From sequence record MN218775.2: DNA of 39,253 nucleotides. One strand, 5' to 3'. Positions 2,873 through 35,690 of this stretch are shown here, piece by piece. The position numbers and the translations under genes were made by a program. Source of the stretch: Escherichia virus ECG4. The notes under the pieces are model-generated. The model did no database searches, was not told the DNA's origin, and saw only the letters and a list, made by a program, of their open reading frames with translations. Position 1 is the stretch's first letter. Every line of letters begins with the position of its first letter.

Positions 2873-5554
2873 ATGAGCGTCATCTCTATTGACAAACATG
2901 ACTTCTCTGATGTGTCGAACGCCATTGAGCCGTTTAACCTGCTGGCTGACCACTACGGACAAGACCTTGCAGTCAAACAGCTTCAGCTTGAGCATGAGGC
3001 ATATACAGAAGGCGAGCGACGTTTCATCAAGAACCTTGAGCGGCAGACTGAGCGCGGGGAACTGGCAGACAATCAGGTCGCCAAGCCTTTGATGCAGACT
3101 CTGGTCCCTAAGATTGCGCAAGCCGTCAGGGAGTGGCACGAAGGCCTAGACGGGAAGCTGTCAACCTCGCGTCCTAGCGTAGCGTTCACCATGTTGAGCA
3201 CTGAAGAGAAGGCCGTTAAGGACCGCTCTATGCGCATCTCCTGTGAGTCCGCTGCGGTTATCATACTGAAGGTCATACTCTCCAAGCTGGTCAAGCCTGA
3301 AGGGATACCGATTACACCGATGGCCTCCGCGATAGGTCGCACGCTTGAGGACGAAATCCGCTTCGGTCGCATCCGTGACAAAGAGAAGGAGCACTTCAAG
3401 AAGGCGATAGCTGATAACCTGAACAAGCGAGCTGGGGCATCCTACAAGAAAGCCTACATGCAAGCGGTCGAGGCGTCCATGCTGGAGCAAGGCCAACTGG
3501 AAGATGCATGGGGTACTTGGAGTCCTACAGAGGCTGTACACGTTGGCATCAAGATGCTCGAGATTGTCATCCAGTCAACACAACTGGTCGAGCTTAAGCG
3601 GTACGGTGCTGGTAATGCAGCGGCTGACGTAGAGATGGTCCACCTGTCAGACTTCTGGGTCAAGAAGATGGCACAACGAGGATTCAGCCTTGCGGGTATC
3701 GCTCCAGTCTACCAGCCTTGCGTCGTTCCACCTAAGCCGTGGACTGGTGTCGTAGGTGGTGGGTACTGGGCCAAAGGTCGCAGACCGTTACCATTGATTC
3801 GCTTAGGGTCTAAGTCTGCGGTAGCACGTTATGAAGACGTATACATGCCTGAAGTCTATGACGCTGTGAACATCATTCAGAATACACCTTGGAAAGTTAA
3901 CAAGAAGGTATTGGACGTGGTGAACATGGTCGAGAAGCTGAACAACACGCCTATTAATGACATCCCTCAGATGGAACCGCTGAAGCCTGAGGACTATGCT
4001 GGTGAAACCGAGGAGGAACTCAAGGCATGGAAGAAGGCTGCTGCTGGTATCTATCGCCGCGAGAAGGCCAGACAGTCACGCAGATTGTCCATGAGTTTCA
4101 TCGTTCACCAGGCCAACAAGTTCTCACAGTTTAAGGCCATCTGGTTCCCGTACAACATGGATTGGCGAGGTCGTGTCTACGCTGTCCCGATGTTCAACCC
4201 TCAGGGTAACGACATGCAGAAGGGGCTCCTGACTCTGGCAGTCGGCAAGCCTATCGGGGCGGATGGTTTCAAATGGCTTAAAGTCCACGGTGCAAACTGT
4301 GCGGGTGTCGATAAAGTCACCTTCGATGAGCGCATCAAGTGGGTGGAAGACAACCACGAAAACATCATGGCTGCTGCTAAGGCACCGATGGATAGTATTG
4401 AGTGGTGGGGCAAGTTAGACTCTCCGTTCTGTTTCCTCGCGTTCTGCTTCGAGTATGCTGGCGTAATGCACCACGGCCTGTCTTACTCCTGCTCGCTGCC
4501 GATAGCGTTCGATGGGTCCTGCTCTGGTATTCAGCACTTCAGTGCGATGCTTCGTGACCACATCGGTGGACATGCAGTAAACCTGACGCCATCCGGCATG
4601 GTACAAGACATCTACCGCATTGTGTCTGACCGCATTGAGGAGGAGCTTAAAGTCCTTCTGATTAACGGTACTGACAACGAGATGGTCACTCACGAGGATA
4701 AGAAAACTGGTGAGATTACCGAACGTATCAAGCTGGGGACACGAGAGCTGGCCCGTCGGTGGCTGACATACGGTATGTCACGCAAGGTCACTAAGCGTTC
4801 AGTCATGACTCTGGCATACGGGTCGAAAGAGTACGGATTCGCAGACCAAGTTTACGAGGACATCGTGATGCCAGCGATTGACTCAGGGTCTGGCGCTATG
4901 TTCACTGAACCAAGCCAAGCGTCTCGCTTCATGGCAAAGATGATTTGGGAAGCTGTGAGTGTGACAGTAGTTGCTGCGGTTGACGCGATGAAGTGGCTTC
5001 AAGGTGCTGCCAAGCTGCTGGCTGCTGAGGTGAAGGACAAGAAGACTGGGGAAATCCTGAAGCCTTGCCTTCCGGTACACTGGGTCACACCTGATGGGTT
5101 CCCGGTCTGGCAGGAATACCGCAAGAAGGATACCACTCGTCTGAACCTGATGTTCTTAGGGTCCTTCAACCTTCAACCTACGGTCAACAAAGGTACGAAG
5201 AAAGAGCTGGACAAGCACAAGCAGGAGTCAGGCATTAGCCTTAACTTCGTCCACTCACAAGATGGTAGCCACCTGCGGAAGACTGTAGTCCACACTCACA
5301 GCAAGTATGGCGTGATGTCATTCGCAGTGATTCACGATAGCTTCGGGACCATCCCTGCTGACGCTGAGTATCTGTTCCGTGGTGTCCGTGAGACGATGGT
5401 CGAGACATACCGCGATAACGATGTGCTGCTTGACTTCTACGAGCAGTTTGAATACCAGCTTCATGAAAGCCAGCGCGACAAGTTGCCTGAGCTTCCGAAG
5501 AAAGGTAAACTGAATATCGAAGACATCTTGTCTTCAGACTTTGCATTCGCTTAA
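2873..5554 (+). CDS. Single-subunit DNA-directed RNA polymerase (T7 gene 1 homologue), 893 aa
   Basis: Length and colinear similarity to T7 RNAP, including the C-terminal HSQDGSHLRKTVV ... DSFGTIPADA ... SDFAFA. Confidence 0.97.
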   Translation: MSVISIDKHDFSDVSNAIEPFNLLADHYGQDLAVKQLQLEHEAYTEGERRFIKNLERQTERGELADNQVAKPLMQTLVPKIAQAVREWHEGLDGKLSTSRPSVAFTMLSTEEKAVKDRSMRISCESAAVIILKVILSKLVKPEGIPITPMASAIGRTLEDEIRFGRIRDKEKEHFKKAIADNLNKRAGASYKKAYMQAVEASMLEQGQLEDAWGTWSPTEAVHVGIKMLEIVIQSTQLVELKRYGAGNAAADVEMVHLSDFWVKKMAQRGFSLAGIAPVYQPCVVPPKPWTGVVGGGYWAKGRRPLPLIRLGSKSAVARYEDVYMPEVYDAVNIIQNTPWKVNKKVLDVVNMVEKLNNTPINDIPQMEPLKPEDYAGETEEELKAWKKAAAGIYRREKARQSRRLSMSFIVHQANKFSQFKAIWFPYNMDWRGRVYAVPMFNPQGNDMQKGLLTLAVGKPIGADGFKWLKVHGANCAGVDKVTFDERIKWVEDNHENIMAAAKAPMDSIEWWGKLDSPFCFLAFCFEYAGVMHHGLSYSCSLPIAFDGSCSGIQHFSAMLRDHIGGHAVNLTPSGMVQDIYRIVSDRIEEELKVLLINGTDNEMVTHEDKKTGEITERIKLGTRELARRWLTYGMSRKVTKRSVMTLAYGSKEYGFADQVYEDIVMPAIDSGSGAMFTEPSQASRFMAKMIWEAVSVTVVAAVDAMKWLQGAAKLLAAEVKDKKTGEILKPCLPVHWVTPDGFPVWQEYRKKDTTRLNLMFLGSFNLQPTVNKGTKKELDKHKQESGISLNFVHSQDGSHLRKTVVHTHSKYGVMSFAVIHDSFGTIPADAEYLFRGVRETMVETYRDNDVLLDFYEQFEYQLHESQRDKLPELPKKGKLNIEDILSSDFAFA

Positions 5555-5620
5555 CAGGAGAGAGTTCTGAAATTTGCACACAAGCATGCTGGAGTTAAGG
5601 GCGGGACTCAAATCGTGACC

Positions 5621-5782
5621 ATGACAGAACACAACGGCAATGGTCTGGTGAAGACCACGGTCATTCCTACCGAAATGTCAAAGCAGCTTAACGTCCCATT
5701 CAAGACCCTCGTCTATCTTGTGGAATCCAGCCACGAGAAATACCTGAAAGACGCAGTGACCAAGCTGGAGCAGACCAAATGA
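5621..5782 (+). CDS. Hypothetical 53-aa protein inside the atypical segment after the RNAP gene
   Basis: ATG ORF MTEHNGNGLVKTTVIPTEMSKQLNVPFKTLVYLVESSHEKYLKDAVTKLEQTK; weak RBS; T7 has no gene here. Confidence 0.3.
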   Translation: MTEHNGNGLVKTTVIPTEMSKQLNVPFKTLVYLVESSHEKYLKDAVTKLEQTK

Positions 5783-6023
5783 CAGACCTACAGTTACTGG
5801 CCTTGTGGCTGGGAGCACTCGCAGTATTCACTTTAATCCAAAGCAGAAGAGGTTAACCCATACGTTCAACCTTATACTGCAAGCCCGTATCGCAGATCTC
5901 GCAGCAACCATCGAGGGTCAGGACCAAAATCTTGAGCTGGCTAACCGGGAGCCCGCACGGCTAGGGGCCAAGATTTAGAAGGCTGAAGAGAAGCGTGAAG
6001 TCGAGCCGTTCGAGGTTAAGCGG

Positions 6024-6416
6024 ATGGTCGGCCTGAAGTTCAAGGCTCTGTTCAATAGCCTCTACCAGCCGACTGAGTTCAAGACCGGGCCTGGAGCATG
6101 CGGTAAGATTGTGACGCACTTCACCACGAGTCGAGACGAGCGGACCCTGACCATCCACCAGCACCACACGGATGGCTCTCAGAAGGACTACATGCTGAGA
6201 CTGAGCGACATCGACGGTCGCATCCAGTATGACTACGAGCAAGTTAAAGTCTATGGACAGGAGGCCGAACGTGAGCGAGCGATTCAGGCATTCACGCAGG
6301 TAAGACCGCGCATCATCTTACCCCTTTGCCTCCCATTGCCGTTAACCGTTAAAATTCCGTGTCGACGTACGTACGTACGTACGTACGTACGTACGTTGCA
6401 TGCATGCATGCACTAA
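6024..6416 (+). CDS. Hypothetical 130-aa ORF that runs into the tetranucleotide repeat tract
   Basis: ATG with GAGG 8 nt upstream. The last about 15 codons are translated from the (ACGT)n/(TGCA)n tract and the stop is the TAA of the downstream promoter, so the 3' end is not credible as native coding. Confidence 0.25.
   Translation: MVGLKFKALFNSLYQPTEFKTGPGACGKIVTHFTTSRDERTLTIHQHHTDGSQKDYMLRLSDIDGRIQYDYEQVKVYGQEAERERAIQAFTQVRPRIILPLCLPLPLTVKIPCRRTYVRTYVRTLHACMH
6357..6412. repeat. Perfect tetranucleotide tandem tract: SalI-like GTCGAC, then (ACGT)x8 (6365-6396), then (TGCA)x4 (6397-6412)
   Basis: Read directly from the sequence. Contains ATG in all three frames (6400, 6404, 6408) and three GCATGC sites; abuts the phi1.1-like promoter. 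Confidence 0.95.
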
Positions 6417-6434
6417 ACTATCACTATAGGATTA
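6412..6434 (+). promoter_or_regulatory. Phage RNAP promoter (phi1.1-like)
   Basis: TAAACTATCACTATAGGA at 6414-6431, +1 G at 6429. Confidence 0.75.
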
Positions 6435-6476
6435 GACTCAAGGTCATGACTCAAAGTCGTGGCCTTCATGATTAAC
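6433..6476 (+). promoter_or_regulatory. Conserved hairpin element TAGACTCAAGGTCAT ... GTGGCCTTCATGATTAAC (candidate RNase III site, R1.1-like)
   Basis: One of three near-identical elements (also 13237-13278 and 36245-36287); AAGGTC can pair with GGCCTT. Confidence 0.45.
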
Positions 6477-6514
6477 CTTTATTACTCATTTTCAATTATT
6501 GGAGCTTTACCCCT

Positions 6515-6688
6515 ATGTATCAGAACACTATCAACTTCGAGCGAATCCGTGAACGTCAGCAGACTGAAGATTATATTCCGAAGGGACGCAAGCTGAACAA
6601 GACCAAGCGTGGTGGAGGTGTCAAGGGTGCTTTCCGTAACGCTGAAGGCAAAGACTCTCTATGGTCAACCAAGAGAAATACTTCGTAG
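6515..6688 (+). CDS. gp1.1-like small basic protein, 57 aa
   Basis: Contains KGRKLNKTKR as in T7 gp1.1; GGAG RBS; position after the phi1.1 promoter. Confidence 0.6.
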   Translation: MYQNTINFERIRERQQTEDYIPKGRKLNKTKRGGGVKGAFRNAEGKDSLWSTKRNTS

Positions 6689-6701
6689 GAGTGTAAACCA
6701 A

Positions 6702-11034: not shown

Positions 11035-11247
11035 ATGATTAAACTTATCGAATTTCTCGGTCGTCTGGTGGTGCGTGGTTATCGTCGTGCTGCGGTTATG
11101 GAACGAAAGGTAGCAGAGAAGACTGCTGACGGTGCGGCTGATGCTGCTGCTCTGGCTGACAAGCTGACCATCGCGTCACTGGAAGCTGGCATGAAGGCAC
11201 GTCAGGCTGACACCAAAGCTGACCAGTTGTCTAAGTTCTTCAACTGA
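11035..11247 (+). CDS. Hypothetical protein, 70 aa (hydrophobic N-terminus, Ala/Lys-rich tail)
   Basis: ORF with AAGGAG RBS. Confidence 0.55.
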   Translation: MIKLIEFLGRLVVRGYRRAAVMERKVAEKTADGAADAAALADKLTIASLEAGMKARQADTKADQLSKFFN

Positions 11248-11253
11248 CTGAAG

Positions 11254-11278
11254 GCTAAACTATCACCTTAGGGATGGG
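11254..11278 (+). promoter_or_regulatory. Degenerate phage-promoter-like sequence (CT in place of TA at -4/-3)
   Basis: TAAACTATCACCTTAGGG at 11256-11273; the upstream 12 nt are consensus but the initiation region is altered. Confidence 0.35.
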
Positions 11279-11326: not shown

Positions 11327-11344
11327 ATGGCTTTTTTTTTTTAA
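11327..11344 (+). other. Apparent authentic gene 4 start codon followed by an in-frame TAA inside a T11 homopolymer
   Basis: AAGGAG RBS, then ATG GCT TTT TTT TTT TAA. The codons after the stop translate to [28 protein letters not shown], matching the T7 gp4A zinc-binding N-terminus. Confidence 0.6.
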
Positions 11345-13298: not shown

Positions 13299-15470
13299 AT
13301 GTTTGACCTTAAGAGTATCTGGGGTTCTGACATAGAGACCAACGGTCTCCTTGATACAGTATCCCAGTTTCACTGTGGGGTCCTGATTAACGCCGAGTCG
13401 AATGAGACCCTTAAGTATGGGGTAGCTCCGATGGTCGGTATCGTCGGTGGCTTCAAAGAGTATGTACAGAAGGTGGAAGAGATTGCCGCATCACCTGATG
13501 GTATGCTGGTATTCCACAACGGTATCAACTATGACGTCCCGGCTATTGACAAGCTGAAGCGTCTGTACTTTGGGAAACGCTTTAACTTCCCGAAACACAA
13601 GATGATTGATACCTTGGTGCTGGGACGCTTGATGTATCCAAACATTAAGTTCTCAGACATGGGCGCAGTGAAAGCTGGTCGTCTGCCACCTAAGATGATG
13701 GGACGCCAGTCTCTTGAGGCTTGGGGCTATCGTCTCGGTGAGATGAAAGGTGAGTACAAACACGATTACGTTGCCAAGTGCAAGGCTGAAGGTATCGAAT
13801 ATAAGGCTGGGGACGAATGGTTGTTCCCATCTCAGGAGATGCTAGACTATAACGTTCAAGACGTTGTGGTCACACTGGCGTTGTTCAAGAAGTTCCTGAC
13901 TGACAAGTATTACTTCCAGTCTGAACAGTTCGCTTTCGACCAGATTTATGCGTTGCGTCTGGAACATGATGCTGCGTGGACCTGTGCGAAGATGGAACGT
14001 AACGGCTATCCGATGAACACCGAGATGGTCGAAGGCTTATATCGTGAACTCACCGTCAAACGTGCAGAGTTGTTGGACAAGCTGCGTTCGACTTTCGGTA
14101 GCTGGTATGCACCAAAGGGAGGCAAGGAGTTCTTCAAGCACCCACGGACAGGCAAGGACCTTCCGAAGTATCCGCGAGTCGTGTATCCTAAGGTCGGGTC
14201 AGTATTCAAGAAGCCGAAGAACAAAGCTCAACGATTAGGTCTGGAGCCTTGCGAGTTCGACTCACGAGACACGATGGAAGGAGCACCGTTCACACCTATC
14301 ACTTACGTTGAGTTTAATCCGGGAAGCGGAGACCACTTAGCGAAAGTCCTGATGGAGCGTGGCTGGGAGCCTGTGGACTTCACTGACACCGGGAAACCTG
14401 TAGTCGATGACGAGACGTTAGAACACGTTAAGTTACCAGACGAAGAGGCTCAGGCTTGCGTAGAGCTGGTCCGTGAGTATCTGGTAGTCCAGAAGCGCAT
14501 CGGTCAGGCTGCTGAAGGTAAGAACGCATGGTTGAAACTTGTAGGTCCAGACGGACGTATGCACGGTTCAATCAACCCATGCGGGGCAGTAACCGGACGT
14601 GCTACTCATAGTTCACCAAACATGGCTCAGGTCCCTGCTAACGGTGCTCCGTATGGTGAGATTTGCCGTGGTGCTTTCGGTGCAGCTTGGAACAAGACGG
14701 ATGGTAAGCCAGACCCTTGGATTCAAGTGGGCGTGGATGCCTCAGGTCTTGAGCTTCGTTGTCTGGGGAACCGAGCGGCCCCGTTTGATGGTGGAGCCTA
14801 TGCGAAGACTGTGGTAGAAGGGGACATCCACTGGGCCAACGCAGTAAACGCTGGGTTAGCACCTAACGTCCCACGCGATAAGTCGAACCACGACCATGAG
14901 GCTTTCCGTAACAACGCTAAGACGTTCATCTATGCGTTCCTGTATGGTGCAGGGGCCGCTAAGATTGGACTGATAGTCGGTGGCGGTAAGAAGGAAGGTT
15001 CAGCTCTCATGAAGAAATTCATTGAGGGTACACCAGCTATCAAGGATCTGCGAGAGGCTGTGAAGAATACGTTAATCTCAGACTCTAAGTGGGTGGATGG
15101 AGAGAACATCGTCAAGTGGAAACGCCGTTGGTTGCGTGGACTTGATGGTCGCCGTATCCACATCCGGTCGCCGCACTCAGCACTTAACGCCTTACTTCAG
15201 GGTGATGGTGCGGTGGTCTGTAAACACTGGCTTGGCGAGATGGAACCTAAGCTTTACGAGGCATTTTACCTGCATGGCTGGGATGGTGACTTTGCGTTTA
15301 TGGCTTTTGTCCATGATGAAGTTCAAGTTGCCGGCCGGACTATGGAAATAGCTGAGGACATCGTTAAGGTGGCGCAATCCACAATGCGAGAGGTTGGAGA
15401 GTTCTACAAGTTCAAGTGTGTACTTGACACCGAGGGAAAGATAGGATTTACGTGGCGGGAGTGTCACTAA
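13299..15470 (+). CDS. DNA polymerase (T7 gene 5 homologue), 723 aa
   Basis: Family A polymerase order: N-terminal 3'-5' exonuclease (SDIETNGLL), then palm/fingers; length close to T7 gp5. Confidence 0.95.
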   Translation: MFDLKSIWGSDIETNGLLDTVSQFHCGVLINAESNETLKYGVAPMVGIVGGFKEYVQKVEEIAASPDGMLVFHNGINYDVPAIDKLKRLYFGKRFNFPKHKMIDTLVLGRLMYPNIKFSDMGAVKAGRLPPKMMGRQSLEAWGYRLGEMKGEYKHDYVAKCKAEGIEYKAGDEWLFPSQEMLDYNVQDVVVTLALFKKFLTDKYYFQSEQFAFDQIYALRLEHDAAWTCAKMERNGYPMNTEMVEGLYRELTVKRAELLDKLRSTFGSWYAPKGGKEFFKHPRTGKDLPKYPRVVYPKVGSVFKKPKNKAQRLGLEPCEFDSRDTMEGAPFTPITYVEFNPGSGDHLAKVLMERGWEPVDFTDTGKPVVDDETLEHVKLPDEEAQACVELVREYLVVQKRIGQAAEGKNAWLKLVGPDGRMHGSINPCGAVTGRATHSSPNMAQVPANGAPYGEICRGAFGAAWNKTDGKPDPWIQVGVDASGLELRCLGNRAAPFDGGAYAKTVVEGDIHWANAVNAGLAPNVPRDKSNHDHEAFRNNAKTFIYAFLYGAGAAKIGLIVGGGKKEGSALMKKFIEGTPAIKDLREAVKNTLISDSKWVDGENIVKWKRRWLRGLDGRRIHIRSPHSALNALLQGDGAVVCKHWLGEMEPKLYEAFYLHGWDGDFAFMAFVHDEVQVAGRTMEIAEDIVKVAQSTMREVGEFYKFKCVLDTEGKIGFTWRECH

Positions 15471-15488
15471 TGGCTATGACCAAACGGT

Positions 15489-15746
15489 ATGCGAGTTTCG
15501 TTCTCGCTGGGTGCTGTGTTTCCAACTGAAAACGTGGAGAACTTCAAGAAGACTCTCTGCGAGCTGAGCCGTAAGGTCCTCAACGGAGAGAAGACCACTG
15601 GTTTTGAGCATAAGATGGTAGAGGTTGGTGTAACTGAAGGTCTTGAAGCTGTAGTCGAACTGGTCATCAAGAAAGTTATCGTCGAGCAGCTGAAAGAAGA
15701 CCTGAGCGATTACGATAGCCAGCCGAGCTTTGGCAACTTCCGGTGA
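15489..15746 (+). CDS. gp5.5-like protein, 85 aa, with an apparent frame break at its 5' end
   Basis: ORF starts MRVSFSL...; a 19-codon ORF (15470-15529, MAMTKRY...) overlapping the gene 5 stop is one nucleotide out of frame with it. Confidence 0.5.
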   Translation: MRVSFSLGAVFPTENVENFKKTLCELSRKVLNGEKTTGFEHKMVEVGVTEGLEAVVELVIKKVIVEQLKEDLSDYDSQPSFGNFR

Positions 15747-33033: not shown

Positions 33034-35667
33034 ATGTCCACGATTACACAATTCCCTTCAGGAAACACTCGTTACAGGATTGAGTTCGACTACCTAGCCA
33101 GAACGTTTGTTGTTGTTACGCTGGTGAATAGCTCTAACCCTGCCCTGAACCGTGTACTGGAAGTTGGTCGAGATTACCGATTCCTTAATCCAACGATGAT
33201 TGAGATGTTGGTTGACCAATCAGGTTTCGACATCGTTCGTATTCACCGTCAGACTGGAACTGACTTAGTGGTAGACTTCAGGAATGGCTCAGTGTTGACA
33301 GCTAGTGACCTGACCAATGCAGAGCTTCAGGCTATCCATATTGCAGAAGAAGGTCGAGACCAAACTGTTGACTTAGCGAAGGAATATGCCGATGCTGCTG
33401 GTAACTCTGCTGGCAACGCTAAGGATAGCGAGGACGAAGCACGACGAATCGCTGAGAGTATCAAGGCATCTGGTCTTCTTGGCTATATTACCCGTCGCTC
33501 CTTCGAGAAAGGCTTCAACGTTACAATATGGAACGAGGTACTGCTATGGGAAGAGGATGGTGATTATTACCGATGGGATGGTGGACTGCCAAAAAACGTA
33601 CCTGTTGGTTCAACTCCTGAAACGTCTGGCGGCGTTGGTTTGGGTGCGTGGGTTAGTGTTGGTGATGCGTCATTGCGCGCCGATATTGCAAACCTTTACC
33701 AACCGGAACAAATTTATTCGGCACAAAAACGGGAAACACTGTCTACAGTCCTGAGCAGCCGTTGGGCTAATTCGGGAGCAGATAAAAAGAAATTCGTTTT
33801 GACCTGCCATTACTATTCCCAGATTACGATGCTATTCTGGCGGCACACCCTGACTGGACGTTTATTTATCCGGGGTCATTCTGTATCGGGGATGATGGCA
33901 AAATCTATATTACATATGGCCCAAGTAACAACGCAGCTACGGAACGTTTCGTTGTACTTTACTCAGGTGAAGGTGAATACTTACGTATCTCCAGACTATT
34001 ATTGGAGGCACCGGGGTAAATGGTTCTGCGGTATCCGAGGGATTATCGTAACCAATTACTATGGTTCACTTAAGTTATTCCTTGATCCTACGATGGTAAC
34101 TTACCTGAGTTTGATATCTCAGCAGTGCCCTACGGCACCACGATTAGCTATACAGCGTTACACCAAGTGGGTCTGGGCATTAACCGTCAACGTAATGTTA
34201 TTGCGTACTTCAACCCGCATTTGCATTAACTGGTTTCACGGAATTTTCTCCGTATCATGCTGGATACATCACGTCAACTACTACTCATTACGGGTCACTT
34301 CAAACTATGCGACAAGCAATCTGTTTAGCTCCCGGTGTTTTGATCATGGCATTTGGTGGTGTTTACATTACAGGAACAACTGTACAAGCGCCTACTATTT
34401 ATCAGGGTACAAGCATTTAGCACTGATGGGCACAAAATGGTACAGGCAGTACTACCCCTACTCATTTTATTACTGTTTTGATGCTACAGGGTTAATGACC
34501 TCTCGTATAGAGAATCAGGGTGTCTGCTATTCAAATGGTCAAGTATTTACTTTCTGGATTTATATCAATACAACTGCCTCAAATGCGTATACTATCGGTA
34601 TCCTGATTACTCAAGAATATTCGAACTCCCCGGATTTGATTTTTCTGGGGCGGTTACGGTATCCCCGGTTACGATACTGTTCGAATGGCTTCTGGGTTTA
34701 CCCTCGTATTCTCTTACAGATCTGGATGGAGTTGCCTACCCAATTGGGATACAGCTTCATATCAGCAACCTCAATAACCTCAGCTTCTATAGATCAGACT
34801 GGGCCACTACCCGTAAGACTCTGCGCGTTACTTATCACACTTCCGGTTATACCGTATTTACTGGGGCTATCGGTTTACAGACTTATCGCTTATCCCTCAA
34901 TAATACTGACTCTGGTGCATTATCCCAAGGTCGAATTGCAGCTAGGGCTTTCGGTAATAAAACTTTATCCGAATCAGAACAGATTCTTGTCCTCGATCAA
35001 CAAAGTTCCGCATCTGCACATTCTCTTATCTTACGTGGTGGATCGTCGGTATTTAAGAGTGCTACGTCTATTATATCTATACGCCATCGAATACTGCCAC
35101 CTACGGTTTCGGGCGACGGATTACTACCAAAACATACATCTCTACGTCCATACACAGATAACGCTTACAATTTACGCGGCCCAGCATTACGTGTGGCTCA
35201 AGTCTTCGCAGCGATTGGTACTATTAATACGTCCGACTCCCGTGAAAAACTTACCCGTTTCAAATCTCGGATCATATCCTTCATGCCTGGGCGACGTGCA
35301 GATAATCACGTACAAGTGGTTATCTTCTATTGCGGGTACAGGTGCAGATTCTGCTCGTTGGCATTTCGGGTATTTGCCCAGCAAGTTCGTGATGCCTTCG
35401 TATAGCATGGTTTCATGGTACTACCTTCGGTCTGCTTTGCTATGTCGAGTGGGAAGATCAGTATCAACCTCAGTTCGTTCATCAGGTTATCACTGTTATT
35501 ATTCATGGTGTAGATACCGAAGTTACCCGTCAAGTGGAAACCGGTATTACCATACTTACTACAGCTGCCGGTCATCGCTGGGGCATTCGTCCAGATCAGT
35601 GTTTCTGGTTGAGGCCGCTTATCAGCGACGTCGCTGCGACAGGATTGAAACACGACTGACTGACTGA
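33034..35667 (+). CDS. Tail fiber/tailspike ORF, 877 aa: T7 gp17-like N-terminal adaptor domain, then an anomalous central region
   Basis: N-terminal about 230 aa matches T7 gp17 ([36 protein letters not shown]). From about 33750 to 35600 the open frame encodes a Tyr/Cys/Trp/His-rich, Asp/Glu/Lys-poor sequence. The ORF ends in the three-frame stop TGACTGACTGA. Confidence 0.5.
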
Positions 35668-35690
35668 CGTACGTACGTACGTACGTACGT
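35654..35690. repeat. Perfect tetranucleotide tandem tract: (GACT)x3 then (ACGT)x6, with TGA in all three frames
   Basis: Read directly: GACTGACTGACTGACGTACGTACGTACGTACGTACGT; TGA at 35657, 35661, 35665. Confidence 0.95.

Follow-up and report, generated by a model that had tools for sequence, protein, structure and literature searches.

The DNA analysed here (the window, 39,253 bases in length) is the complete genome of Escherichia virus ECG4, a K1F-type member of the T7 group (genus Kayfunavirus). The region of interest (positions 5555–6412) begins immediately downstream of gene 1 and comprises, in this order, a conserved early gene (ORF A), a hydrophobic mini-ORF (ORF B), a T3 gene 1.05 homologue that an amber codon divides in two and a 93-bp insert which adjoins the phi1.1 promoter (Table 1). 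The closest record in the phage collection is that of LS3 (MN518893.2), whose full-length alignment to ECG4 shows 99.19% identity, 312 mismatches and 6 gap columns; sewage water from India is given as the source in the records of both LS3 and LS2 (MN518894.2), and a literature search for papers describing LS3, LS2 or ECG4 found none.

Table 1. Features of the gene 1–phi1.1 region of ECG4 and related sites elsewhere in the genome
Feature	Coordinates	Strand	Basis
Gene 1, T7-type RNA polymerase, 893 aa; upstream boundary of the segment	2873..5554	+	ORF list; annotated as RNA polymerase in LS3, Peacock and EcoDS1
ORF A, conserved 71-aa early gene, phrog_8082	5567..5782	+	profile match; MKFAHK start of the relatives
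ORF B, 25-aa hydrophobic mini-ORF MTDLQLLALWLGALAVFTLIQSRRG, overlapping the ORF A stop (ATGA)	5779..5856	+	kept in relatives
Gene 1.05 homologue, N-terminal long-helix part, ending at the amber TAG 5976–5978	5862..5978	+	Peacock; same-allele relatives
Gene 1.05 homologue, C-terminal beta-rich domain, from the family-invariant Met (VKRMVG)	6024..6319	+	PF25755; phrog_8103
Insert: 45 unmatched bases (6320–6364), (ACGT)8 (6365–6396), (TGCA)4 (6397–6412)	6320..6412		alignment; TRF
Junction sequences expected if the block is absent from the physical phage: ...CATCATCTT / CTAAACTATC; ...GCGCATCATCTT joined to CTAAACTATCAC			
phi1.1 phage promoter, conserved core from −16, +1 G at 6429; gene 1.05 TAA at 6414–6416	6413..6435	+	promoter scan
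Third short filler-like insert CTGACTGA, a few bases 5′ of the promoter at 11255 (placement approximate)	11244..11251		indel scan vs Peacock; alignment
Second filler, (GACT)3 then (ACGT)6, in place of the GATAA that contains the natural tailspike stop	35654..35690		alignment with ZCEC02, LI10P1 and Peacock; TRF

The early-gene block downstream of gene 1

Positions 5555–6319 are the standard K1F-type (Kayfunavirus) early-gene block between gene 1 and the phi1.1 promoter, made up of ORF A (71 aa), the 25-aa hydrophobic mini-ORF and the T3 gene 1.05 homologue, a stretch of known and already catalogued genes. A sensitive DNA search matched the segment in 220 phage records, in 21 of which at least 80% of its length was covered, and the first 765 bp are found with 74–94% identity in phages of Escherichia, Klebsiella, Enterobacter, Citrobacter, Salmonella and other hosts from several countries. 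The gene order following the RNA polymerase gene is identical in all 15 relatives compared, namely Peacock, EcoDS1, five other annotated records and eight IMG/VR contigs.

The initial annotation, for which the yardstick was T7 with its ~185 bp of promoters and origin at the gene 1/gene 1.1 place, had taken the entire segment for foreign payload or artificial DNA. The shortness of the T7 region and the somewhat high GC3 of gene 1.05 (0.72 compared to 0.62) are indeed what a foreign or synthetic segment of 860 bp lodged in a T7-like backbone could display. However, the first 765 bp are widely shared, the ORFs are conserved, two of them belong to curated families and EcoDS1 and BA14 have gene 1.05 at the corresponding position, so that the probability of this reading is next to nil. 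T7 is in fact the wrong reference, since gene 1.05 is present here in T3, in BA14 and in phages of the K1F type. For positions 5555–6319, which make up 89% of the segment, the presence of the same DNA with conserved ORFs in related wild phages (the 220 records) contradicts the claim, which retains its validity for positions 6320–6412 insofar as these appear artificial, as filler of the record and not as payload.

The base composition of the segment gives a similar picture. The GC content (200-bp windows) varies between 0.45 and 0.575, with a mean of 0.53 for 5555–6319 compared to 0.50 for the genome; no AT-rich stretch was detected in the segment with these windows, as the initial annotation had maintained in reporting the lack of origin-like sequence. 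The GC-rich, C-ending codons to which it had also drawn attention are real, the GC3 of the gene 1.05 part exceeding that of the RNA polymerase gene, but they are not alien to this phage.

A scan with CTAAACTATCACTATAGGA, which has 11 matches in the whole ECG4 genome vs 0.01 expected by chance, detected no promoter within 5555–6412, the nearest match starting at 6413, which bears out the earlier statement that the segment has no phage promoter. No terminator-like site was found inside the segment either, and an Rfam scan of positions 5400–6700 yielded only sub-threshold chance matches driven by the palindrome. Since the segment has neither a promoter nor a terminator of its own, the block would be transcribed by read-through from upstream, starting from the early promoters of the host polymerase and from the phage promoter at 2782.

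ORF A matches phrog_8082 over its full length (E 3e-40, residues 1–66 of the 66-position profile); its product begins with MKFAHK in all 15 relatives, the family length ranging from 66 to 71 aa. The start codon, which is ATG in the 15 relatives as well as in LS3 and LS2, is CTG in ECG4, although the A at 5567 is invariant in the four other aligned sequences (4/4); furthermore, in ECG4 the GTA at 5621–5623 is changed to ATG. It is because of the CTG at the genuine start and of this new ATG that only a 53-aa ORF (5621–5782) had been perceived here: this ORF exists, nested within a 55-aa GTG ORF, but it is the tail of ORF A.

The 25-codon hydrophobic ORF overlapping the ORF A stop is likewise present as described. 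ORF B is intact in 14 of the 15 relatives, with conservative substitutions that can be summarized as MTDL[QK][LW]LALWL[GA][AF]LAV[FY][TI]LIQ[RS]RRG, and its DNA is nearly invariant even when compared to EcoDS1; its annotation is absent from all 10 annotated records inspected. Judged from this conservation, ORF B, which separates ORF A from gene 1.05, probably encodes a real small membrane protein; conserved yet unannotated, it constitutes a small positive lead.

The gene 1.05 homologue and its amber codon

The 130-aa ORF extending from 6024 to 6416 matches the Pfam family PF25755 (Phage_T3_1_05) with 74.7 bits over residues 2–71 (cut-off 27, E 5.7e-21), in agreement with the precomputed PF25755 assignment of the same protein, and also matches phrog_8103. 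Homologues of gene 1.05 number 224 in a collection of 5.8 billion proteins and, among the 120 listed, most are unsplit and 149–160 aa long.

In ECG4 the frame ...NREPARLGAKI–stop–KAEEKREVEPFEVKRMVGLKF... is interrupted at codon 39 by the TAG at 5976–5978, and the earlier suggestion that the two parts belong to a single protein is vindicated by the relatives, which have Gln at this position. Indeed, the seven relatives having the same N-terminal allele (MFNRKLKARIA...) carry CAG or CAA at this codon within an uninterrupted ORF of ~152 aa, and both EcoDS1 gp1.05 and the Pfam family Phage_T3_1_05 cross the position of the TAG in one stop-free frame, a finding at odds with the notion of a foreign segment. 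The TAG is confined to Peacock, LS3, ECG4 and, by alignment, LS2. Since the same-allele relatives have Gln and most of the listed homologues are unsplit, the TAG is a derived C-to-T nonsense change (CAG to TAG) in one small clade and not a recoding signal.

Programmed recoding or read-through of the TAG, giving rise to two forms of gp1.05, would be compatible with a frame that is open and conserved on both sides of the stop and with the occurrence of the same TAG in Peacock, an independent record from the USA; moreover, a CAG-to-TAG change is decoded as Gln in a supE (glnV44) host, so that in such a host the Gln would be restored. Nevertheless, the stop is not conserved in the family, Gln being found in 7/7 same-allele relatives, and the upstream piece of ECG4 and LS3, lacking an ATG and bearing nine replacements, resembles decay or sequence error, so that a programmed event is highly improbable.

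A structure model of a full-length relative (mean pLDDT 85) predicts a helix (residues 2–45), a six-strand beta domain (50–130) and a C-terminal helix, the position of the TAG falling within the N-terminal helix; a structure and fold comparison yielded no solved structure or fold relative pointing to a function of gp1.05. A single ORF of ~150–160 aa with a long N-terminal helix, typical of the full-length Kayfunavirus gp1.05, is not found in ECG4. The N-terminal piece starts with ACG (5862–5864) as opposed to the ATG of Peacock and the other relatives and, in both ECG4 and LS3, it differs from that of Peacock by nine replacements over 38 residues, one of which introduces a proline in the helix. 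In the downstream piece, the DFEYRL motif, in which 34/34 aligned homologues agree on F, Y, R and L and at least 90% of them on D and E, reads DYMLRL in ECG4 and LS3 (YML at 6189–6197); LS2 keeps F, Y, R and L at the DNA level. The Met at 6024 is invariant in the family and preceded 8 nt upstream by GAGG, and for this reason the beta domain may plausibly still be made from this residue. Gene 1.05 is likely dispensable, since T7 does without it.

The initial annotation had also seen a resemblance to a eukaryotic 5′ splice site near the end of this gene. The string CAGGTAAGA is indeed present at 6297–6305 and is followed by a stretch that is 73% pyrimidine, but the former represents Gln-Val-Arg codons that Peacock, EcoDS1 and the homologues keep in the same frame, a situation different from that of a spliceosomal intron, and the pyrimidine tract belongs to the 93-bp filler.

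The 93-bp insert and the editing of the records

The alignment of the gene 1/gene 1.1 junction with that of the relatives, while showing that 5555–6319 is shared, leaves a sharply bounded oddity of exactly 93 bp between ...GCGCATCATCTT and CTAAACTATCACTATAGG. ECG4, LS3 and LS2 have this block in identical form and at the same place, whereas no other sequence among 50,697 phage records, those of Peacock and EcoDS1 included, contains it. It consists of 31 stop-free codons, in frame, so that the gene 1.05 ORF continues to its natural TAA inside the promoter; these are the last 31 codons of the 130-aa ORF, whose degeneration into repeat-derived codons had been correctly recognized. The 130-aa protein is common to ECG4 (WEU75002.1) and LS3 (WGG26684.1), and its 31-aa tail was found in no other protein of the 5.8-billion-protein collection. 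As to the promoter, positions −16 to +3 (6413–6431) have 0 mismatches to the phage's own consensus; the insert sits between −17 and −16, altering only the non-conserved −17 and, as the eleven promoters vary at this position, the conserved core begins exactly where the insert ends. The same promoter is annotated in EcoDS1 and BA14 as overlapping the end of gene 1.05.

Searches for the origin of the block gave chance-level matches only (E ≥ 1) in 72,556 plasmids and no match in 5,426 E. coli genomes or in IMG/VR, the JGI metagenomes and 185,579 GTDB genomes; within the ECG4 genome there is no second copy. A vector or host origin was rejected on account of these empty searches and, in the absence of similarity to vectors or plasmids, nothing points to a cloned payload. 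The string (ACGT)6 occurs twice in the ECG4 genome (TRF) and has 0 matches in 2.9 million IMG/VR viral contigs; since no such array exists in Peacock either, a natural tetranucleotide microsatellite of phages was likewise discarded. The block contains 20 six-base palindromes vs 0.6 expected, including sites for SalI, HpaI, SphI, SnaBI and BsiWI, and folds into strong hairpins (z = −4.1).

The peculiarity of the ECG4 record is not restricted to this site. The second filler (Table 1) lies at the end of the tailspike gene, and CTGACTGACTGA contains TGA in all three frames; strings of ACGT and of three-frame stops are thus both located at the ends of genes. The tailspike ORF itself (877 aa, WEU75031.1) differs from that of its close relative LI10P1 by 23 indel events, mostly single-base deletions, and remains open for 877 codons in spite of these frame-shifting changes. 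At 46 of the 96 differing codons the LI10P1 triplet, read in the ECG4 frame, is a stop, and these 46 stops are replaced in ECG4 according to a rule: TAA by TAT, TAG by TAC and TGA by TCA. LS3 shares with ECG4 both the second filler and the tailspike frameshifts, but many of the same stops are replaced there by AAA, AAG and AGA, which shows that a single frameshifted template was “repaired” twice; the tailspike of LS2 is different from that of ECG4. Such a pattern of stop replacement is not one that evolution would produce, and the overwriting of 46 stops, carried out differently in ECG4 and LS3, shows that the records of ECG4, LS3 and LS2 were edited in silico.

Additional alterations are found elsewhere. 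Eight fragments of ORF A, arranged in order, have overwritten gene 1.05 in LS2. ECG4, LS3, LS2 and Peacock also disagree, in an arbitrary manner, in the gene 1.1 leader (6480–6514) and in the opening codons of the primase gene (GCTTTTTTTTTTTAAG, ~11335). A genome-wide loss of stop triplets was considered and refuted by the comparison of ECG4 with Peacock, in which 298 are lost vs 279 gained. Given that there is no general loss, the editing is local, affecting the tailspike, the gene 1.1 leader and some start codons, its extent inside 5555–6319 being uncertain.

Against this background, the 93-bp block would be a placeholder consisting of 45 arbitrary bases followed by (ACGT)8(TGCA)4 in three records that share a template, and placeholder text is the most economical reading. 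The block is thus most likely non-biological filler and probably an artefact of the record, which would be lacking in the physical phage. Taken as a whole, the interpretation that 5555–6319 contains ordinary phage genes and 6320–6412 placeholder text in an edited record is, in our opinion, very probably correct.

Two alternatives concern the block itself. The first is that the 93 bp are physically present beside phi1.1, be it an engineered tag, a cloning scar or a palindromic insertion of natural origin. Its identity in three records, its being in frame, stop-free and exactly adjacent to the promoter core with the natural TAA spared (properties that a deliberate or selected real insertion would equally display) and its wealth of restriction-type palindromes and hairpins all lend themselves to this view. 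However, ECG4 and LS3 share one template and, the records being edited, the agreement of the three of them does not amount to independent evidence; the LS records give sewage water as source; similarity to plasmids or vectors is lacking and (ACGT)6 is not found in the viral contigs; like filler occurs at the ends of two further genes, in place of the natural stop or ahead of it; and the repetition of identical restriction sites would be senseless in a polylinker. Physical presence is accordingly unlikely. Were it nonetheless real, gp1.05 would gain 31 residues and a perfect (ACGT)8 palindrome of 32 bp would be created at the phi1.1 promoter, the region that in T7 constitutes the primary replication origin. 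That phage particles carry the block, whether as a barcode put on purpose into the genome of phages that were deposited as sewage isolates or as a natural cruciform-forming insertion, is also decidedly unlikely.

The second alternative attributes the repeats to an instrument or assembler artefact, such as flow-order noise in reads at contig ends joined at promoter repeats. On the 454 or early Ion Torrent platforms nucleotides are flowed in TACG cycles, which when repeated give (ACGT)n, and the TCAG key reads CTGA on the opposite strand; by analogy, the (ACGT)n array could reflect that flow order, and all three filler sites are at or beside points where ECG4 departs from its relatives. On the other hand, (TGCA)4 and the 45 unmatched bases follow no flow order, the same 93 bp occur at the same position in three assemblies, and the rewriting of the stops obeys codon-aware rules that no assembler applies, so that an origin of this type is very unlikely. 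Placeholder text in an edited record remains the preferred reading.

The biological weight of the locus is low, as it harbours known and widespread early genes and an amber split that represents a minor, lineage-specific mutation. The main message concerns data quality, in that the ECG4, LS3 and LS2 records hold placeholder strings, overwritten stop codons and scrambled genes, and that proteins derived from them, such as the 130-aa “gp1.05” with its TYVRTYVRT tail and the 877-aa tailspike labelled as transglycosylase, are already present in protein databases. Caution is advised when these three records are used in comparative genomics, in model training and in safety checks for phage therapy.

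Relation to T7 and to the other members of the group

The ECG4 segment occupies the same genomic position as the T7 gene 1/1.1 intergenic region, which contains phi1.1A, phi1.1B and the primary origin, and in both phages a phage promoter is located immediately 5′ of gene 1.1, as is well established for T7. Whereas T7 has no coding sequence at this place, that of ECG4 is taken up by three genes with a single promoter, and an AT-rich stretch is missing; the arrangement of the T7 primary origin, i.e., two phage promoters followed by AT-rich DNA, is not that of the ECG4 segment.

The comparison with the phages that possess gene 1.05 is closer. EcoDS1 gp1.05 (156 aa) has the same domain as the ECG4 homologue and the same location between gene 1 and phi1.1; the order gene 1/gene 1.05/phi1.1 is common to EcoDS1, BA14, Peacock and 12 other relatives, and in EcoDS1 and BA14, as in ECG4, the stop codon of gene 1.05 lies inside the promoter. 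Compared to the known gp1.05, the ECG4 copy is distinguished by its amber split, by the lack of an ATG in its N-terminal piece, by DYMLRL and by 31 extra residues encoded by the filler.

Peacock (MK903279) is one of the closest known counterparts of the ECG4 locus. It has neither the 93-bp insert nor any ACGT or GACT filler anywhere, and its ORF A and its N-terminal gene 1.05 piece have both retained ATG, where ECG4 has CTG and ACG, respectively. Its genes 012–014 form the same three-gene block with 93.5% identity, including the same TAG and a 99-aa C-terminal ORF which ends with ...RPRIIF and a stop inside the promoter.

Start of ORF A and the overlapping mini-ORF

The conserved 71-aa early gene that follows the RNA polymerase gene (ORF A, phrog_8082) begins with CTG in ECG4, in the place of the ATG found in LS3 (MN518893.2) and in all relatives, and an in-frame ATG is present 18 codons downstream, where LS3 and all relatives have GTA. 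Taken together, the two substitutions shift the apparent start of the gene, and this pairing looks like the product of editing or error rather than of divergence.

ORF A is followed, with an ATGA overlap, by a hydrophobic mini-ORF of 25 aa which is kept in 14 of 15 relatives with almost invariant DNA. The 10 annotated records examined all leave it unmarked; its product may be a small membrane protein encoded in the early region.

Coordinates of the features discussed
Feature	Record	Position
18-bp tandem duplication	ECG4	1381-1416
Displaced start codons	ECG4	2248-2300; 15446-15516
ORF A start codon	ECG4	5567
Downstream in-frame ATG	ECG4	5621-5623
25-aa mini-ORF	ECG4	5779-5856
ORF A, fragment source	LS2	5552-5775
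Overwritten gene 1.05	LS2	5843-6151
gp1.05 motif	ECG4	6189-6197
Gene 1.1 leader and ribosome-binding region	ECG4	6480-6514
8-bp insert	ECG4	11244-11251
Promoter	ECG4	11255
Primase/helicase opening codons	ECG4	11335-11342
Tailspike ORF	ECG4	33034-35667
Tailspike indel region	ECG4	33600-35667
Filler at tailspike stop	ECG4	35654-35690

Gene 1.05 and the gene 1.1 leader

In LS2 (MN518894.2), ORF A is also the source of eight ordered fragments of 10-45 nt that overwrite gene 1.05, the homologue of the T3 gene of this name (PF25755), alternating with surviving gene 1.05 sequence in a stretch without annotated CDS. This arrangement looks like the outcome of a mis-aligned consensus merge.

In ECG4 gp1.05 reads D-Y-M-L-R-L instead of D-F-E-Y-R-L, a motif whose F, Y, R and L are invariant across 34 homologues and which LS2 retains at the DNA level; 7 of the 12 bases at this spot are unlike those of the relative Peacock (MK903279). 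In the gene 1.1 leader ECG4 and LS3 differ at 12 positions, most of which are T in ECG4, and LS2 and Peacock are different again; the stop triplets of the Peacock leader are lost in all three edited records (ECG4, LS3 and LS2).

Other peculiarities of ECG4 and LS3

Upstream of the gene 0.3 homologue ECG4 and LS3, unlike LS2 and Peacock, carry a perfect tandem duplication of CTACAGGTCGTTAGACTG. Beside small indels, start codons are displaced by 1-2 bases between ECG4 and LS3 (e.g., CTAATGAGC vs CTAATATGC and CACTAATGGCTATGACC vs CACTAAATGCTATCACC, respectively), which suggests manual adjustment of the reading frames. An insert, CTGACTGA, lies a few bases upstream of the promoter at 11255. The opening codons of the primase/helicase gene read ATGGCTTTTTTTTTTTAAG in ECG4; the bases differ in each of LS3, LS2 and Peacock.

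Rewriting of the tailspike gene

At the end of the ECG4 tailspike gene, GATAA, the site of its natural stop, is replaced by the placeholder-like string (GACT)3(ACGT)6, and the ORF now terminates at a TGA within this filler; LS3 carries the same string, which is found in none of ZCEC02, LI10P1 and Peacock, the relatives compared at this stop. Upstream, 23 indel events separate the gene from its close relatives, and at 46 codons the stops induced by frame shifts have been replaced following a rule (TAA to TAT, TAG to TAC and TGA to TCA), LS3 often having AAA, AAG or AGA at the same stops. The ECG4 product is annotated as “peptidoglycan lytic exotransglycosylase”; at the DNA level the gene matches endo-N-acetylneuraminidase tailspikes.
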